From sequence record MZ234026.1: a DNA stretch of 45,144 bases; one strand, given 5' to 3'. Positions 340 through 30,322 of the stretch are shown piece after piece. Each line of letters begins with the position of its first letter. Positions within the stretch are counted from its first letter, which is position 1. Position numbers and translations under genes: made by a program. This stretch comes from Escherichia phage vB_EcoS-CHD2B1. The notes beneath the pieces are model-generated. The model made no database searches. It was not told the origin of the DNA and saw nothing but the letters and a program-made list of their open reading frames with translations.

Positions 340-513
340 TATGCAGTCTCAGACGAGGGGGGCCAACTGACCCCCGTCTAGTCTGAAAGACTGGGGTTTG
401 TCCCGCCTGTCCCGCTCCCCTGCAAGCCGCGTAATCCGGGGCGGGACGGGGGTGCTGTCCCGCTTTGTCCCGCCCCCTGGCTGTCCCGCTTTTTGTCCCG
501 CTTACTTTATGCA
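340..513. repeat. Iteron element copy A: two adjacent hairpins followed by about five GTCCCGC direct repeats and GCGGGAC inverted copies, flanked by TTATGCA motifs
   Basis: About 170 bp near-identical to 28536..28704; non-coding by position (between primase stop at 608 and gene start at 137). Confidence 0.8.
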
Positions 514-607: not shown

Positions 608-2872
608 TTAATCTTTCAGGTCATCATCGGTCGCTGAAAGCGTGATGGGTATATCCGATTTTATGACCAGATTCGACGACCCATAGATGGCCCCGGTGTG
701 TGGATCTGTATAAAATCCGAGCACGCCGCGCTCCACCATATCGTCAATTGCCTTCGTCGATGTGCCACCTTTCGCAAGTCCAGCCTGGCGGACGATTGCC
801 GATTTACTGAATCCAGTATGGTCCGGGTTATCTTCCATCAGTTTTTCCAGTGCCGCATAAAGCACCTTCTCTTTCTCGTTGCGCGGTCCGGCGGTGTTCT
901 CTTCCTTAACTGCTGCCTTGCCTGCTGCCTTAGCCTGTTCGATAGCGAACGGCGCCAGGGCGACCGGTACGAGGTAAAGAGTCTCGTCGCGTGGCGTGGA
1001 GGCAATTGGCTTGACGTCCCAACCGGCAACCACATCGCCGAAGTCTGGCCCGGTGCTGGTGGACTGGTGGGCTTCGAACGCATCAGACTTACGGAGATCC
1101 ACCTTAACTTTGCACTTGAGCAGGACGAAGCCACGCGGCGCTTGCTTGATGCCGTTACGTGACTTTTCGTGATACAGGTTAAGCTGGCCTGGCTGATTAT
1201 CGTCCGGCTGTTCCAGGAAGAACGCAGAATCTACAGCACCATGAAGCGCGCCGGACCCGCGTGGTGACCTGCTGCCGTTTGCACCCTTAGCCGGGTGATG
1301 GATGACACCCGCACTGCCACCTGTATTTTCCGCAATGGACTTCAGCGCCTTGACCACTTCGCCCATATCGCTTGCGTTGTTCTCGTCGAACGGTTTGGCA
1401 TCAGCGGACCGCAGCGCTACAGTCTGGTTGAGTGAGTCGAAGGCCACCAGGCCAACCGGCTCCCCGTTAGCGGTGCGGTTGATAAAGCTGATAACCTCGC
1501 GCAAGCCTGACTTGCTGGTAATATCCCAGCCGCGTGATTGCAGGTCGATAATGTGCAGCTTGTCGAGGTCGTGCTCGTATTTAATCTGCAATGCTTCCTT
1601 ACGCTGGTTGGAGGCTTCGCCACCTTCCGCATCGAAATAGAAGCAATGCGACTGGACGACCTTCGCGCCACCGAACGGAATCCCCGCGGCAACAGCGCCC
1701 ATCTGGCCCAGCACGTAGAACGACTTACCAATGTTCGACTCACCCGCCATATACCAGGTAGATTTGAAGTTGACCAGGCCTTCGATAATCGGGTCGTGCT
1801 TACTGAACAGAGCGACCGGCTCGTTGTCCAGGTCAGCGTCGGTGCATTCGCCGTACTCGTCGCCGTCTCCGACCGCATCAACAATATGTTCATAGCACGA
1901 TTCCACTTCCTCGTCGTCCAGTCCGGGAAGGATGGCGGCGATTTGCTTGCGTGACATGTTGTGTGGCTCGACGTTCAAGTGGTCCGGGATGCCGATCAGA
2001 CGCAGCGCCAGGTGCTGGTGTTTATTCAGTTCGGAACAGAATTCGTTGCCGGTGTGCATACACTTGAAACGGATCTCGCCATCCTTAACCATGATAGCCG
2101 TCGACCCGCCGCCGCTATGCAGGTGCTCGTTCGGGCAAGGCACTTCATAACCGCGACCGGATGACAGTGGTTCAAAGCCAGCCTGGAAGCACCAATCCAG
2201 AATGCCGTCCGCCACGCCATCGGCGCCCTGGGTCAGTTCGCGGCGCACTTCCTCTTTCTCCACTCCCAGCTTGTCAGCCAGGCGAAGCAGACGACGGACA
2301 CGGGCGCGCTTTCCGTAGTGGCACTTTATGACAGACTGCTGGTGAGGCAGGTACATAAGGCGGTTGGTGTCTTTCGTACAATCGTCGAAGTCCACATCTG
2401 ACAGGCCCAGTTGGTCTAATAGCGCATACTGGACGCGGCCCAGGTCTTCAGCCGGTACAGGCTTGTCAGTGAGCACCAGGAAACGGGCGCAACGTGTGCC
2501 GCCTTTCAGTGGGTGACGGTCGCCGGTTGTGGTGTGGAATACGTGCTCCAGGCCAGCGTCGGTGAACGCCTTACGGCAGCGGCGTAAGGTGCGGGTGTCA
2601 GTGCGGTCAATATCGAAGAACAGGATCGAGCGGTCGACCGCACTGGTCTTGCGGCGTAAGCCATCATTGGTATAGGCCACGATGCCATCAGCCTTACGCT
2701 TGCGGCGCGCATACTCGGCTTTATCTTCAGTCTTGTTGATGTGCACCGAGGAGATTTCTTTCGCATCGTTGATAAATTCGAAAAATTCATCAGTGGTCAT
2801 CTCGAAGTTTTCCGCCCTGGCTTTTTCGCCTTTTTTAGCGGGTCTTGTTACTGCGAATTTAATTAAGCTCAT
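608..2872 (-). CDS. DNA primase/helicase (N-terminal primase-polymerase-like domain, Cys/His zinc-binding motif, C-terminal RecA-like helicase with Walker A GESNIGKS)
   Basis: 754-aa ORF; motifs CPNEHLHSGGGS...KCMHTGNE and GESNIGKS...AFDSLN; ATG at 2872. Confidence 0.8.
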   Translation of the reverse strand: MSLIKFAVTRPAKKGEKARAENFEMTTDEFFEFINDAKEISSVHINKTEDKAEYARRKRKADGIVAYTNDGLRRKTSAVDRSILFFDIDRTDTRTLRRCRKAFTDAGLEHVFHTTTGDRHPLKGGTRCARFLVLTDKPVPAEDLGRVQYALLDQLGLSDVDFDDCTKDTNRLMYLPHQQSVIKCHYGKRARVRRLLRLADKLGVEKEEVRRELTQGADGVADGILDWCFQAGFEPLSSGRGYEVPCPNEHLHSGGGSTAIMVKDGEIRFKCMHTGNEFCSELNKHQHLALRLIGIPDHLNVEPHNMSRKQIAAILPGLDDEEVESCYEHIVDAVGDGDEYGECTDADLDNEPVALFSKHDPIIEGLVNFKSTWYMAGESNIGKSFYVLGQMGAVAAGIPFGGAKVVQSHCFYFDAEGGEASNQRKEALQIKYEHDLDKLHIIDLQSRGWDITSKSGLREVISFINRTANGEPVGLVAFDSLNQTVALRSADAKPFDENNASDMGEVVKALKSIAENTGGSAGVIHHPAKGANGSRSPRGSGALHGAVDSAFFLEQPDDNQPGQLNLYHEKSRNGIKQAPRGFVLLKCKVKVDLRKSDAFEAHQSTSTGPDFGDVVAGWDVKPIASTPRDETLYLVPVALAPFAIEQAKAAGKAAVKEENTAGPRNEKEKVLYAALEKLMEDNPDHTGFSKSAIVRQAGLAKGGTSTKAIDDMVERGVLGFYTDPHTGAIYGSSNLVIKSDIPITLSATDDDLKD

Positions 2873-25820: not shown

Positions 25821-28466
25821 TCATCGTTTGTAAAGTACTCCACCCGGTTTCGTCGCTTTCACGATCTCAGCCTTGACCGACTCGGTGATTTGCTTTCCGA
25901 ACGCCTGCGCGGTGCGTGGGTCCGGTCCGCTCACACTGGTGTCCGTTTTACCGGTCCCCATGTTCACGTTGGTCGTTACAATCATCCCACCCCCACCAGC
26001 ACCGGCAGCGGCAACGCCCAGTTTCCCGTCCGGCCCGCGCTTCAGTGGCATGATGGCCTCGGGTCCGGCCTCACCCATCAATCCAGCGCCCTTAGCGAAC
26101 GCCTGAACGCCATAACTGAAAAAGGTAGGCTGGCTTACCACTTGCCCGGAATAGGCCGCTAGATTGCCTCCTGCGTACGCTCCGCCGTCTGCGTTCTTAG
26201 TGAGGCCCGAGAAGATAGCGCCGAACAATCCGTTTTTGCCGCCGTCACCGCCGAAAGCGCTAACGATGGATTTGAACGCCTGCGAGGTAGCCAGCTTGAT
26301 TAATTCGCTCAGGATGGACTTAACCATATCCTTCGCGCTCAGCTTGCCCGTCTCGAAAAACTTGTTCATCGTGTCCTGCATAGCGCCGAACGTGAATTTT
26401 GTGAGTGACGTCATCTGCGTGTAGCCGTTACCCATTTCATCCACGCTATCCTTAAGCCCGCGGCCGAAGCCATCCCACAACGAGGCGTTAGCACCGGTCT
26501 GTGCTTCCTGCACTTCGCGCAGCTTAGACACCGCGTTGTCAATATCAGTATCGTTAGCGCCGACACGCTGAAGGCGGTCAATTAGCTGTAATTCTTCGCG
26601 CAGGTTAGCCGCTTCGCGAGTGGAAAGCGCATAGCCCGCAGCGGTGGCCCTTAGCTCAGCGTTCTGGTTCTTGATGAATGCCTCGACCTGGGCGTGTGCC
26701 TTGATCTGCTTCTCTTTCGCGTCCAGCAATTTGGCTTCTTCGACGATCTGCTCGCGTACCGCTTTAACCGCCTCGAACTCCGCCATTTGCTGCTTTTCTG
26801 CTGCCGTTAGAGTGCGCTCCTTGCTTGCGGCGACCATCTGCTCATTATCCGCCACCAGCTTATTCAACGCGGCCTGTGCGCGCTGCGTGCGGGTCTGCGT
26901 TGTTGCATTGGCCTCGATCTGCTTGCCGGACTCCTTAAGCTGTGCCAGTTCGCTCCGTGCGACCTCCAGCATTTTGACACCGGCATCCACGCGAATAGCC
27001 GCCGCCTTCTTCGGTGCGGGGTCTTTGTAGCGCTCGTTGACCTGCTTCACCGCCTCGGCTAGTTCTTTCTCGTTAATCACACCGCGCTTATTCAGCAAAT
27101 TGAGGCGGGCGATCTCGTCGGCGCGCTTCTGCGCGTTGGTGGCAAATTCCTTCTCGAACGCGGCGCGGTCGCGGGCGGTGCGGTTGGCCTCCTCGTTCGC
27201 CTTCGCTGATTTGTCCGCGGCGCTGGCGTTGTCGCGCTCAGCACGGTTGCGCAGGGTGAGTGACGCTACGACCTTCTCCTGGGCGACCAGTTCGCTATAA
27301 AGCATGTTAATTCGTGCTTTCTGCGCCTCGGTCATTACCCCACCGGCAGCGTTTACCGCTTTCATCTCGGCATAGTAAGCCGTTGTCATGCGCTGCAAGG
27401 ACTCACGCGCTTTCATCTCGGACTCATTCGAGGACTGCGCGCGGCCCACATCCAGGATGGCATCCCACATAGATTTAGCTGCCGATGTGACGACGTTCAT
27501 CGATCGCTCAAGCGTACCCATGTTGGACTTGATCTCGTTGGTCATGCTGGTGAACGACGCCGCGGCTGTTTTGTTAGCCAACGCCACCGCTTCAGTTTCG
27601 CGACCCGTCGTAACCAGTGACTGCACCTGCTGGATCTGCGCCTCGGTAACGACGTGATACTTGTCTGCCAGTGCGCGCAAGCCGCCCACCGGGTCGTTGG
27701 ACAATTTGGAGATGGACTCCACCACGTCAGCGATCGGCTGATTAGACACCTTCGCGAAGTCGTTCACCACTTTCGCCAGCGCGCCAAAGTCAGCACCGGC
27801 TTTCACACCTGCCGCCGCCAGCGCCTGAATTGTGTCACGCGTCTTGCTGAATGATCCGCCCATGCGTTCGGCGTTCTCCGACAGCACCAGGATCTGGTTA
27901 GCGGTGAGGCCAGAGATATTACCGGATAGCGCCAGCGTCTTATTCAGCGCCGCTACCTGGTTTTCGGCACGGGACGTAATCGCCACGCCTACGCCTAACG
28001 TCGCCGTTACCGCAGCAAGGCCGATCCCTACCGGACCGAGAAAGCCAGCAACATAACGCAGCGTATTACCCAGCCCACCGAATGCCCCGGTTAACTGCGG
28101 TAACTGCTGAATCATGACGCGGTGCACCGGCATACCCATCTCTAGCGTGACCGCAATATCCTGTAACTGAAATGCGGCGTTACGTGAGGCAAAGCCCAGG
28201 TTTTTAGTCGACATGCCTAAGCGGTTGGCAAGTCGCTCCTGCTTCGTCATGCCATCTGCGGCGCGCTGCGATTCAGTTGCCAGCTTCCCCATTCCGCCCG
28301 CGGCGTCACCCGTCACCTTTTTCGTGTTGCCGAGTGTGTCGTTTAATTTCTTAACCTTGTTTTCGGTGTTCTCGGACTTCTGCGCGAATGAGTCCAGCAC
28401 CGTATTCGCCGTTCTGATTTGTGCAACATCCGCCTTTAGCGTGATGCCTGCTGCTTGATCTGCCAT
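25821..28466 (-). CDS. Tail tape measure protein
   Basis: 881 aa from ATG 28466 (AAGGGG RBS); long Ala/Gln-rich coiled-coil; position. Confidence 0.85.
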   Translation of the reverse strand: MADQAAGITLKADVAQIRTANTVLDSFAQKSENTENKVKKLNDTLGNTKKVTGDAAGGMGKLATESQRAADGMTKQERLANRLGMSTKNLGFASRNAAFQLQDIAVTLEMGMPVHRVMIQQLPQLTGAFGGLGNTLRYVAGFLGPVGIGLAAVTATLGVGVAITSRAENQVAALNKTLALSGNISGLTANQILVLSENAERMGGSFSKTRDTIQALAAAGVKAGADFGALAKVVNDFAKVSNQPIADVVESISKLSNDPVGGLRALADKYHVVTEAQIQQVQSLVTTGRETEAVALANKTAAASFTSMTNEIKSNMGTLERSMNVVTSAAKSMWDAILDVGRAQSSNESEMKARESLQRMTTAYYAEMKAVNAAGGVMTEAQKARINMLYSELVAQEKVVASLTLRNRAERDNASAADKSAKANEEANRTARDRAAFEKEFATNAQKRADEIARLNLLNKRGVINEKELAEAVKQVNERYKDPAPKKAAAIRVDAGVKMLEVARSELAQLKESGKQIEANATTQTRTQRAQAALNKLVADNEQMVAASKERTLTAAEKQQMAEFEAVKAVREQIVEEAKLLDAKEKQIKAHAQVEAFIKNQNAELRATAAGYALSTREAANLREELQLIDRLQRVGANDTDIDNAVSKLREVQEAQTGANASLWDGFGRGLKDSVDEMGNGYTQMTSLTKFTFGAMQDTMNKFFETGKLSAKDMVKSILSELIKLATSQAFKSIVSAFGGDGGKNGLFGAIFSGLTKNADGGAYAGGNLAAYSGQVVSQPTFFSYGVQAFAKGAGLMGEAGPEAIMPLKRGPDGKLGVAAAGAGGGGMIVTTNVNMGTGKTDTSVSGPDPRTAQAFGKQITESVKAEIVKATKPGGVLYKR

Positions 28467-28535
28467 TATGCAGTCCCCTTTTTTTATGCAGTTGCCGATT
28501 GACATTGTATCAGCGAATTTCAAACAAACCTTATT

Positions 28536-28850
28536 CAGTCTCAGACGAGGGGGGCCATTGACCCCCGTCTAGTCTGAAAGACTGGGAGTTGTCCCGCCTG
28601 TCCCGATCGGCTGAAACCCGCGGCAGCACTGACGGGGACGGGGTGCTGTCCCGCTTTGTCCCGCCCCATGTTTGTCCCGCTTTCTGTCCCGTTTGTTTTA
28701 TGCACGAAATCTGAATAGGTATGCACATTTAGGGGCTGGACGGATCGGGACGTCCCGCTCGTCCCGCTTTGAGTTTATGCAATGAAAGTGAGTAAGTATG
28801 CAGTTTTGCAAAACGGGACAAAGCGGGACGTCCCGTTTTGTCCCGCTTCA
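28536..28850. repeat. Iteron element copy B (extended): same hairpins and GTCCCGC repeats as copy A, plus extra CGGGACGTCCCG palindromes and TATGCACA motifs
   Basis: 28536..28704 aligns with 344..513; extra iterons 28740..28850; lies between the GT chaperone stop (28851) and tape measure start (28466). Confidence 0.8.
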
Positions 28851-29527
28851 TTATGCGGGGTTTTGTTGCGCCATTTCGTCAAGCGCGATTCGCTCCATTA
28901 GCTTTATATCTTTAAATGCACGTTGCTCGTTTTCGATGCCGTGCATCTTAAATAGCCATTCCAGCACGCCGTAGTCGATGCCGTATGCGCCACCGAATCC
29001 GGTGCGCCATTGCGTGGAGCAATCTGTGAAGACTGCGACTATCTTCGCGTTGTCGGGCCATAGCGCAACAGGTGGACAAACATCCTCGGGGGCCGCGCCC
29101 CATAAACTAGCGGCTAAATCTTCGGAGGGTGGCGGCGGGCCATAAAAGCGTCGCGCCGCCTCAATCAGTTTTTTTCACGCAATCCCATCAATTCGAGATA
29201 GTACGAGGTGTGGAACACGCCGAACGCGCGCGGGTAGTTGACCACCAGGCGGCGGACGTTCTCAGCGTTAAATTGGTCTGGCAGATTCCAGCCTTCAGCG
29301 ACGTGCATGATGGCCGCAACCATAACGTTAAAGCCGTCCGGGTCATTGTCGTCATATTCCGACAGCTTGCGCTCGGTGTCCTGCATGGTCTGCGAAAACT
29401 CGTCGATCGGGCGGTGGCGGACGGTAAAGGTCATCTTGCCCGGCTCGTTCTCACCAGGGCGCGGGATCTCAATCGGCAGCTTAAAGGTCGGCTTAGGGTC
29501 AAGTGTAAAGAGTGGTGCTTTAGCCAT
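28851..29527 (-). CDS. Tail assembly chaperone G/GT fusion made by programmed -1 ribosomal frameshift (slippery A AAA AAC at 29168..29174)
   Basis: -1 frame is open for ~105 codons from the slippery site to TAA at 28851..28853, checked codon by codon. Confidence 0.7.
29165..29527 (-). CDS. Tail assembly chaperone (lambda G-like), zero-frame product
   Basis: 120 aa; ATG 29527 with GGAGAA RBS; ends GLREKN-stop with slippery GAAAAAAAC. Confidence 0.75.
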   Translation of the reverse strand: MAKAPLFTLDPKPTFKLPIEIPRPGENEPGKMTFTVRHRPIDEFSQTMQDTERKLSEYDDNDPDGFNVMVAAIMHVAEGWNLPDQFNAENVRRLVVNYPRAFGVFHTSYYLELMGLREKN

Positions 29528-29541
29528 TGTAATATTCTCCA

Positions 29542-29568
29542 ATAAAAAAGGGGCCGTGCTGGCCCCAT
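29542..29568 (-). terminator. Hairpin terminator after major tail gene (GGGGCC ... GGCCCC plus T-run on minus strand)
   Basis: aaaaaaggggccgtgctggcccc; same hairpin family as 16238 and 19576. Confidence 0.55.
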
Positions 29569-29596
29569 ATTAACACTCGCTATTTAAGCGACCAAA

Positions 29597-30322
29597 TCAG
29601 GCAAGTGCCTCGACCAGTTGCTTGTTGTAGATAACCATATCTGATTGCATGGTCAGAGTGGATTGTACCGTTTCCACGTTGTTTACTTCAGCGGACGGAA
29701 TCTTCTGGAAAGATACCTTAGCCGGGTAAATACGAATTTCACCTTTCCCGCTTGCTGCCGCTGGGTTAGTGAACTTAATCACTGTGGTTTTCTGTGTGTC
29801 GTCCAGGTCTTCCAGGATTGGGCGGATCGGGTCTTCTTCGTCGTGGGTGAAGGTGTAAGTCTGGACCAACGGGTTTTTCGTGGTGTTCAGGCTGATCGCG
29901 GTGTTAACCTGCAACGGCTGGAAGGTAGTCGTCTGCTGGTCGCCACCCGACACGGCAACGTTGGTGATAAACGGGAAGTCGATAAAGCTCGACACCTTCA
30001 CCACTTCACCCGGAGTGCCTACTGCAAAAGCACCGGTAGGATATTTGGTGACGTCCGAGGAGTCGAAGCGCGCCAGCGTCACATCGTTGGTAGACACTGC
30101 GCCAACGATAAACGCGCGGTTTAGCGCACGGACCCACGGGGTTTTAGTGAACATAACCACATCACCAACAACCAGACCATGAGATTCCGCGCAGGTAATA
30201 ACGCAACCGGTAGCGAGGTCAGAGATCGACGCGGTGGCGTTGGTAGCTGCCGTAACAGCGATGCCGTCGCCCAGTACGGACCCAATCTGGACGCTAGACC
30301 CGTTAGGAAGTTGATAACCCAT
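29597..30322 (-). CDS. Major tail (tube) protein
   Basis: 241 aa; strong AGGAG RBS; immediately upstream of G/GT; followed by terminator. Confidence 0.65.
   Translation of the reverse strand: MGYQLPNGSSVQIGSVLGDGIAVTAATNATASISDLATGCVITCAESHGLVVGDVVMFTKTPWVRALNRAFIVGAVSTNDVTLARFDSSDVTKYPTGAFAVGTPGEVVKVSSFIDFPFITNVAVSGGDQQTTTFQPLQVNTAISLNTTKNPLVQTYTFTHDEEDPIRPILEDLDDTQKTTVIKFTNPAAASGKGEIRIYPAKVSFQKIPSAEVNNVETVQSTLTMQSDMVIYNKQLVEALA

Follow-up and report, generated by a model that had tools for sequence, protein, structure and literature searches.

Escherichia phage vB_EcoS-CHD2B1 (record MZ234026.1, analysed here over a window of 45,144 nucleotides) very probably uses a -1 ribosomal frameshift at 29174..29168, within its minus-strand tail genes, to produce a 225-aa tail assembly chaperone, GT, as an extended form of the shorter chaperone G. 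The proposed site is a slippery heptamer, A_AAA_AAC, that ends the coding part of the G gene and abuts its stop codon. Most ribosomes would translate G (120 aa) and terminate at the TGA 29167..29165, while a minority would slip one base back, the tRNA-Lys on AAA (P site) and the tRNA-Asn on AAC (A site) re-pairing with AAA AAA. Shifted ribosomes would read on through CTG ATT GAG, adding a 105-residue T domain (DUF1799) to give the 225-aa GT. A low, fixed GT:G ratio is probably set by two elements that would keep the ribosome on the slippery site, namely the stop codon abutting the heptamer and, 7 nt downstream, a GC-rich hairpin. By analogy with phage lambda, the G parts would coat the tape measure protein, the T domain of the rare GT would recruit the tail tube protein, and neither G nor GT would end up in the virion. 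The occurrence of the slip, its efficiency, the parts played by hairpin and stop, and the binding partners are all points that we infer. An earlier note, made from the letters of this stretch, had proposed a G/GT chaperone pair here, and that interpretation is supported by the gene order, the Phage_TAC_4 family of G, a DUF1799 domain in the -1 frame, the lack of a conserved start for T, and a heptamer that is conserved or swapped in 113 of 121 loci.

Anatomy of the probable shift site

The G-like open reading frame (ORF) begins at ATG 29527, runs for 120 codons and has the 3' end ...ATG GGA TTG CGT GAA AAA AAC TGA (...MGLREKN*). The earlier note had placed this ending on the heptamer A AAA AAC (29168..29174), and its coordinates are correct to the base. 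In the -1 frame, a TGA just 5' of the heptamer is kept in all Dhillonvirus relatives; beyond it the frame reads AAA AAA CTG ATT GAG GCG ... and is open to the TAA at 28853..28851. The predicted stop-free run of about 105 codons to a TAA at 28851 is thus found as such, with exactly 105 codons. The zone where the two frames can join, between the -1-frame TGA and the 0-frame TGA, measures ~9 nt. With one stop upstream in the -1 frame and the other downstream in the 0 frame, -1 joining is therefore possible only within the heptamer. The conceptual fusion of 225 aa has the tandem-slip junction ...LREKN|LIEAARRFYGPPPP..., its T part starting LIEAARR. The first ATG, GTG or TTG in the T frame of the window is codon 68, and for this reason the frame is missing from the mechanical ORF list, an absence that the earlier note had pointed out and that we confirm.

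Neither the heptamer count nor the length of the open frame is striking. AAAAAAC is not enriched in the window (4 copies vs 7.2 expected) and is uninformative alone, and an open frame of 105 codons is seen in 303 of 20,000 dinucleotide shuffles of the T stretch (~1.5%). Both being weak alone, it is the phase, position, homology and conservation of the site, all of which stand up, that give it significance.

Conservation of the heptamer and the adjacent stop

The window is from a Dhillonvirus-like coliphage, with 97.9% DNA identity to vB_EcoS_WFI over 28400-29700; Sodalis phage SO-1 is 93% DNA-identical to it over the same interval. Searching IMG/VR with T turned up 45 loci, which fall into three clades. 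The Dhillonviruses (T identity 90-99% to the window) carry GAA AAA AAC TAA in 15/15 loci, clade 2 (43-46%) carries A_AAA_AAC TRA in 12/12, and clade 3 (36-39%) has G_GGA_AAC TRA in 17/17. The position of the heptamer is the same in all three clades and T is always in the -1 frame. The stop of G is TGA in the window vs TAA in the other Dhillonviruses, and the resulting CTR is Leu in the T frame either way.

Three more scans, with distant T proteins as queries, added 77 loci. With an upstream ORF of at least 70 codons required, 113 of 121 loci have a canonical heptamer directly before the stop of that ORF and T in the -1 frame: 68 loci with A_AAA_AAC and 45 with G_GGA_AAC. Elsewhere in the surveyed loci the heptamer-plus-stop 10-mer occurs four times in 678 kb (both strands). 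The exceptions are near-variants with one or two codons between heptamer and stop, a site reading A_AAA_ACC, and a truncated contig. The T1-like phage tiwna has A_AAA_AAC TAA together with Phage_TAC_4 and DUF1799.

A separate observation comes from Klebsiella phage Trimon (Webervirus; L052, 540..570), where a DUF1799-type T lies behind a G ending GCA AAA GTT TAA. Instead of a canonical heptamer this site has A_AAA_G, one codon ahead of the stop, and some family members may therefore use a single-tRNA (P-site) slip on A_AAA.

The exchange of one heptamer for another also bears on transcriptional slippage, in which RNA polymerase would add an extra A in the seven-A run (29175..29169) and so fuse the frames in some mRNAs. 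Polymerase slippage on A/T runs is an established route to a change of frame (PMC5009743), and the sequence GAAAAAAAC does hold an A7 run. However, the 45 conserved loci with G_GGA_AAC offer only three A's and three G's, which cannot support polymerase slippage, and each of the two motifs is a canonical, correctly phased heptamer for tandem slippage. Seven A's are, to our knowledge, also shorter than the runs that give efficient slippage in bacteria. We regard an origin of the fusion in the transcript as highly improbable, and favour a slip of the ribosome.

It is conceivable, though we put it forward only tentatively and think it rather unlikely, that [A_AAA or G_GGA]_AAC plus stop is a fixed 10-nt 'shift-or-stop' module across the whole Phage_TAC_4/DUF1799 class, with -1 frameshifting coupled to termination. 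If so, the G:GT ratio would be set by the stop codon and by competition with the release factor, acting as a built-in stimulator, and the class would be a variant distinct from lambda and HK97, whose site sits 5-6 codons before the stop. The adjacency of heptamer and stop may alternatively reflect only a constraint on the C-terminus of G or on the Asn-Leu junction.

The T segment as a translated domain

Codon-position statistics cover 20 different Dhillonvirus sequences, the window itself and others drawn from GenBank and IMG/VR (84-98% DNA identity). In the T stretch, variable sites number 23/9/69 at positions 1/2/3 of the -1-frame codons (chi-square p=2e-13), and the T frame is stop-free in 20/20 sequences; in G, the own-frame distribution is 10/7/75. 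The T protein matches DUF1799 (PF08809) at 74.9 bits (E=6e-21; gathering cutoff 26), its residues 23-99 covering profile positions 1-80 of 80. Similarity reaches relatives at 36-46% identity, and the match begins at the junction residue. Three residues around the junction, N120, L121 and A125, do not vary in conceptual GT fusions aligned from the three clades. AlphaFold2, given 83 homologues, models T with a pLDDT of 95.1 and with confidence from residue 1 on, placing a helix at residues 2-9; a comparison of this model with the PDB gave no structural relative. Taken together, these comparisons show T to be a conserved protein made by translation in the -1 frame, under purifying selection and with no start of its own. 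A -1 frame without conservation in relatives, which the earlier note had counted against a frameshift, did not appear, as the 23/9/69 bias and the DUF1799 match attest.

With tblastn the T domain turns up in 1151 phage records, T1-like coliphages and Klebsiella Webervirus phages among them. A phmmer search with T gave 1081 clusters, and the best 150 of the 1081 are all 38-150 aa long; these 150 hold no long in-frame G-T fusion, and on this showing the two-frame layout is maintained. On the G side, the match to Phage_TAC_4 (PF08748) scores 81.1 bits (gathering cutoff 21.1), residues 1-120 aligning to profile positions 1-124 of 124. One single profile of 213 positions, phrog_17368, matches both G (positions 1-107) and T (positions 150-212). 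A protein homology search with the 225-aa fusion gave only three matches, two of them G-only and one T-only, and an NCBIfam scan and a PDB sequence search with GT gave no match.

The same data speak to the idea that the arrangement is a relic or a product of chance, either a gene, continuous at one time, that a frameshift mutation has split, or a frame open by accident, with T unexpressed. The frequency of equally long open frames in shuffles and the lack of heptamer enrichment would agree with it. Against this stand the third-position substitution bias in the -1 frame, the Pfam match, the spread of the domain over more than a thousand records, and a two-frame layout kept across clades despite 30-46% T identity. 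The relic or chance reading is hardly credible, and is effectively refuted by the comparative data.

Another explanation makes T a gene in its own right: translation would begin at a non-canonical ATT sharing one base, the last, with the G stop, no frameshift would occur and the heptamer would be incidental. The records of SO-1 and HK578 annotate T in this manner, as a separate 315-nt coding sequence (CDS), gp16, from ATT; gene callers elsewhere give stand-alone T ORFs of 38-150 aa, and clade 3 has an in-frame ATG at T codon 7. However, the ATT has no Shine-Dalgarno sequence upstream (it is preceded by GCGTGAAAAAAACTG) and is not conserved, being ATA in clade 2 and AGA/AGG in clade 3. No canonical T start is conserved, either: the first lies at codon 29, 42, 67 or 74 across the Dhillonviruses, always inside the domain, whereas T residues are conserved from the junction onward and are confidently folded in the model. 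A start of its own would also leave unexplained the heptamer abutting the G stop in 113 of 121 loci and the loss of synonymous variation at the site. We therefore judge independent initiation of T to be very unlikely, and the frameshift remains our preferred account.

Candidate stimulators and points against the frameshift

The candidate stimulatory hairpin has a minimum free energy of -17.1 kcal/mol. In 78 distinct loci, the 50-nt segment 3' of the heptamer folds more stably than control 50-mers of the same genes (-18.4 vs -13.5 kcal/mol; Wilcoxon p=5.5e-9; mean z = -1.16), and synonymous variation over G and T reaches its minimum exactly at the shift site and the hairpin. No overlapping ORF is present at the hairpin, and the constraint there therefore acts on the nucleotide sequence. 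A convincing upstream Shine-Dalgarno-like stimulator of the dnaX type was not found, the only candidate being a GGGA, weak and 8 nt upstream, with a variable last base (GGA/GGG/GGC). A-site codons that are decoded slowly, stops among them ('shifty stops'), are known to promote shifting (PMC5009743), and for the hairpin as well as the adjacent stop we infer a stimulatory role.

Several points weigh against the frameshift interpretation or against its details. The support from four-fold degenerate sites, variable at 0/6 positions in the hairpin vs 62/80 elsewhere (Fisher p=2.9e-4), depends on 20 fairly similar sequences. The hairpin barely beats shuffled sequences (z = -1.8; 12/200 shuffles fold at least as well), and covarying pairs in support of a downstream structure were found in none of the three clades. 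Nor do clades 2 and 3 share the Dhillonvirus hairpin; their consensus structures differ from it and begin further downstream. A_AAA_AAC is reported to be far less shift-prone than A_AAA_AAG in E. coli (PMC5009743), and efficiency may be low, which would fit a low GT:G ratio. The T segment has no similarity to gpT of lambda or HK97, so that its binding partner is assigned from position alone. In the literature, we found no experimental evidence of the fusion protein for any Phage_TAC_4/DUF1799 phage, CHD2B1 included. Finally, a joined CDS is present in 0/8 related, Dhillonvirus-like GenBank records inspected (WFI, SO-1, Haito_Bas83, Opt212, EE09, HK578 and RefSeq copies), which reflects annotation practice and not biology.

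Comparison with known frameshift systems

The G/GT system of lambda was reportedly worked out by Levin, Hendrix and Casjens in 1993 and by Xu, Hendrix and Duda in 2004, 2013 and 2014, the 2004 study being the one said to have defined the G/GT arrangement of long-tailed phages. The features of this arrangement recur in the window: two ORFs are flanked by the genes for the major tail and tape measure proteins; of these, the downstream one uses the -1 frame and overlaps or abuts the 3' end of the upstream one; an in-phase X_XXY_YYZ heptamer sits in the shared open zone and is conserved among relatives; and the downstream ORF is a conserved protein segment without a start of its own. The frameshift has been experimentally confirmed in lambda, P2, L5, TM4, phiC31, HK022 and HK97 (PMC5313236). 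In lambda, gpG and gpGT are made at ~30:1; the binding partner of G is the tape measure protein, and that of T is the major tail protein (PMC5009743).

The likeness to lambda thus covers the order of the genes, a second ORF in the -1 frame without a start, and a canonical heptamer; it would extend to an abundant short product with a rare fusion (30:1 in lambda) and to the presumed role in tape-measure chaperoning and tube-protein recruitment. The site itself differs, as lambda has G_GGA_AAG five codons (15 nt) before the G stop whereas A_AAA_AAC here abuts it. The protein families differ as well, being Phage_TAC_2 and Phage_tail_T in lambda and Phage_TAC_4 and DUF1799 here. T has no Pfam match to Phage_tail_T (PF06223), a family that the T proteins of lambda and HK97 do match, and hhalign of GT or T against T of lambda or HK97 detected no similarity (probability 0.4%). 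G gave no sequence match to Phage_TAC_2 or Phage_TAC_1, only to Phage_TAC_4, and its region was left unmatched by hhalign against lambda GT. Homology of T to lambda gpT was accordingly rejected: the family is a different one, and the resemblance is one of arrangement and mechanism. The earlier note had suggested a comparison of the T part with known tail-chaperone T domains; it yields the DUF1799 domain match and no similarity to T of lambda or HK97.

Phage HK97 has the same arrangement in gp13/gp14, with the -1 frameshift annotated in NC_002167. A putative terminator between its tube gene and G corresponds to the terminator-like hairpin at the same place here, and between GT and the tape measure gene HK97 has the 'moron' gp15 and a terminator, where the window has a terminator-like palindrome and a 390-nt repeat region. 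The differences again concern the site, G_GGA_AAG six codons (18 nt) before the stop, and the families, Phage_TAC_1 and Phage_tail_T.

Closer counterparts are gp15/gp16 of SO-1, gp15/gp16 of HK578 and ORF23/ORF22 of Edwardsiella phage eiAU, which are direct orthologues or homologues; SO-1 (L008) has the same heptamer as the window. For eiAU, ORF22/23 were stated in 2011, as homologues of SO-1 gp16/gp15, to carry the conserved tail frameshift (PMC3025963). Acinetobacter phage Loki has the same site architecture in another phage and host, gp12/gp13 with AAAAAAC adjacent to the stop, as described in 2017 (PMC5313236). Outside phages, the dnaX gene (gamma/tau) of E. coli shares an A_AAA_AAN heptamer, the single E. 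coli tRNA-Lys and a stem-loop a few nt downstream as a stimulator. It differs in having AAG in the A site (AAC here) and an upstream Shine-Dalgarno-like stimulator, and in that its high-efficiency shift truncates the protein whereas the shift here would extend it.

Genomic context

The order of the genes, all on the minus strand, is tail tube, G, T and tape measure (Table 1).

Table 1. Features of the G/GT locus and its neighbours in the window
Feature	Position	Strand	Evidence or remark
Major tail tube gene, upstream neighbour	29597..30322	minus	Pfam Phage_tail_3 E=4e-32; phrog_584 major tail protein E=2e-73
Intrinsic-terminator-like hairpin GGGGCCAGCACGGCCCC then TTTTTT, between tube gene and G	29544..29566	minus	Terminator scan; annotated terminator in WFI
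Shine-Dalgarno GGAG, 9 nt upstream of G ATG	29537..29540	minus	Sequence reading
G, tail assembly chaperone ORF, 120 codons + TGA	29165..29527	minus	Pfam Phage_TAC_4 (PF08748) E=1e-22
TGA closing the -1 frame just 5' of the heptamer (cgT GAa)	29175..29177	minus	Translation
Slippery heptamer A_AAA_AAC	29168..29174	minus	X_XXY_YYZ phase in G frame
G stop codon TGA, abutting the heptamer	29165..29167	minus	Sequence reading and relatives
Candidate stimulatory hairpin GGCGGCG-N16-CGCCGCC, 7-bp GC stem + inner pairs	29131..29160	minus	Starts 7 nt after the heptamer
T extension, 105 sense codons + TAA	28851..29168	minus	-1 frame; C at 29168 read twice
DUF1799 domain, T residues 23-99	28872..29102	minus	Pfam PF08809 E=6e-21; phrog_680 E=1.5e-30
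Tape measure protein gene, downstream neighbour	25821..28463	minus	Pfam TMP_2 E=6e-44, Tape_meas_lam_C E=6e-13

Fewer transcripts would reach G, GT and the tape measure gene than cover the tube gene, on account of the terminator-like hairpin that separates the tube gene from G. Just past the T stop, between GT and the tape measure gene, lies the palindrome CGGGACAAAGCGGGACGTCCCGTTTTGTCCCG at 28811..28848, which scores terminator-like; the records of HK578 and WFI label it a rho-independent terminator. The tape measure ORF as called mechanically begins at TTG 28523 (25821..28523); going by the annotation of relatives, the likely start is ATG 28463 (MADQAAG...), 60 nt downstream.

The non-coding stretch of ~390 nt from the T stop to the tape measure start (28464..28850) is dense in GCGGGAC/GTCCCGC heptamers, with eight exact copies and 13 CGGGAC hexamers. 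It also holds two GGGACGTCCC palindromes (28747 and 28825), and a 34-nt direct repeat, TTTATGCA...GTATGCA, is found at 28697-28730 and 28774-28807. A second GCGGGAC cluster, of seven copies, is located at 400..501, downstream of a 754-aa ORF (608..2872). The whole window has 23 GCGGGAC heptamers vs 8.5 expected, a number that 0/100 shuffles reach. Sodalis phage SO-1 has the counterparts of the two clusters annotated as 'region A' and 'region B'. Repeats of the CGGGAC type, 11-15 hexamers, are present in 20/22 Dhillonvirus loci checked (L010 over a fixed 480-nt window); the remaining two are a truncated locus with five hexamers (L017) and one covered here only in part (L050). These arrays look like arrays of protein-binding sites, for a regulator or an origin.

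Annotation and significance

The records of related phages treat the T stretch in different ways. WFI has no annotation over it, Opt212 has only a 117-nt ORF at the 3' end of T, and Bas83 and EE09 carry spurious ORFs of 31-51 aa in other frames. The earlier note had described the G/GT arrangement as found de novo and absent from the ORF track; none of the eight related records inspected has a join, but T itself is not wholly missing from databases, since SO-1 and HK578 carry it as gp16. Names derived from PHROG (the phrog_569 and phrog_680 labels) wrongly call G and T 'tail length tape measure protein', a name given to G in HK578 RefSeq and Bas83. The lambda RefSeq record, too, has T as a separate CDS and no join. 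In the literature, no description was found of the heptamer, the adjacent stop or the hairpin for the genus Dhillonvirus.

The mechanism is textbook G/GT and adds nothing biologically unexpected to the established paradigm, and the idea of a frameshift in this lineage is not new; the missing piece is the annotation. The main value of the finding lies there, as recognising the join gives the correct 225-aa GT product in a group where even the type species, HK578, is among the records that omit it and give a separate gene from ATT. It also provides a role for Pfam DUF1799, as the frameshift-added 'T' domain of Phage_TAC_4 chaperones, and the regular signature of heptamer plus stop could be a simple rule for the automatic annotation of the Phage_TAC_4/DUF1799 class.

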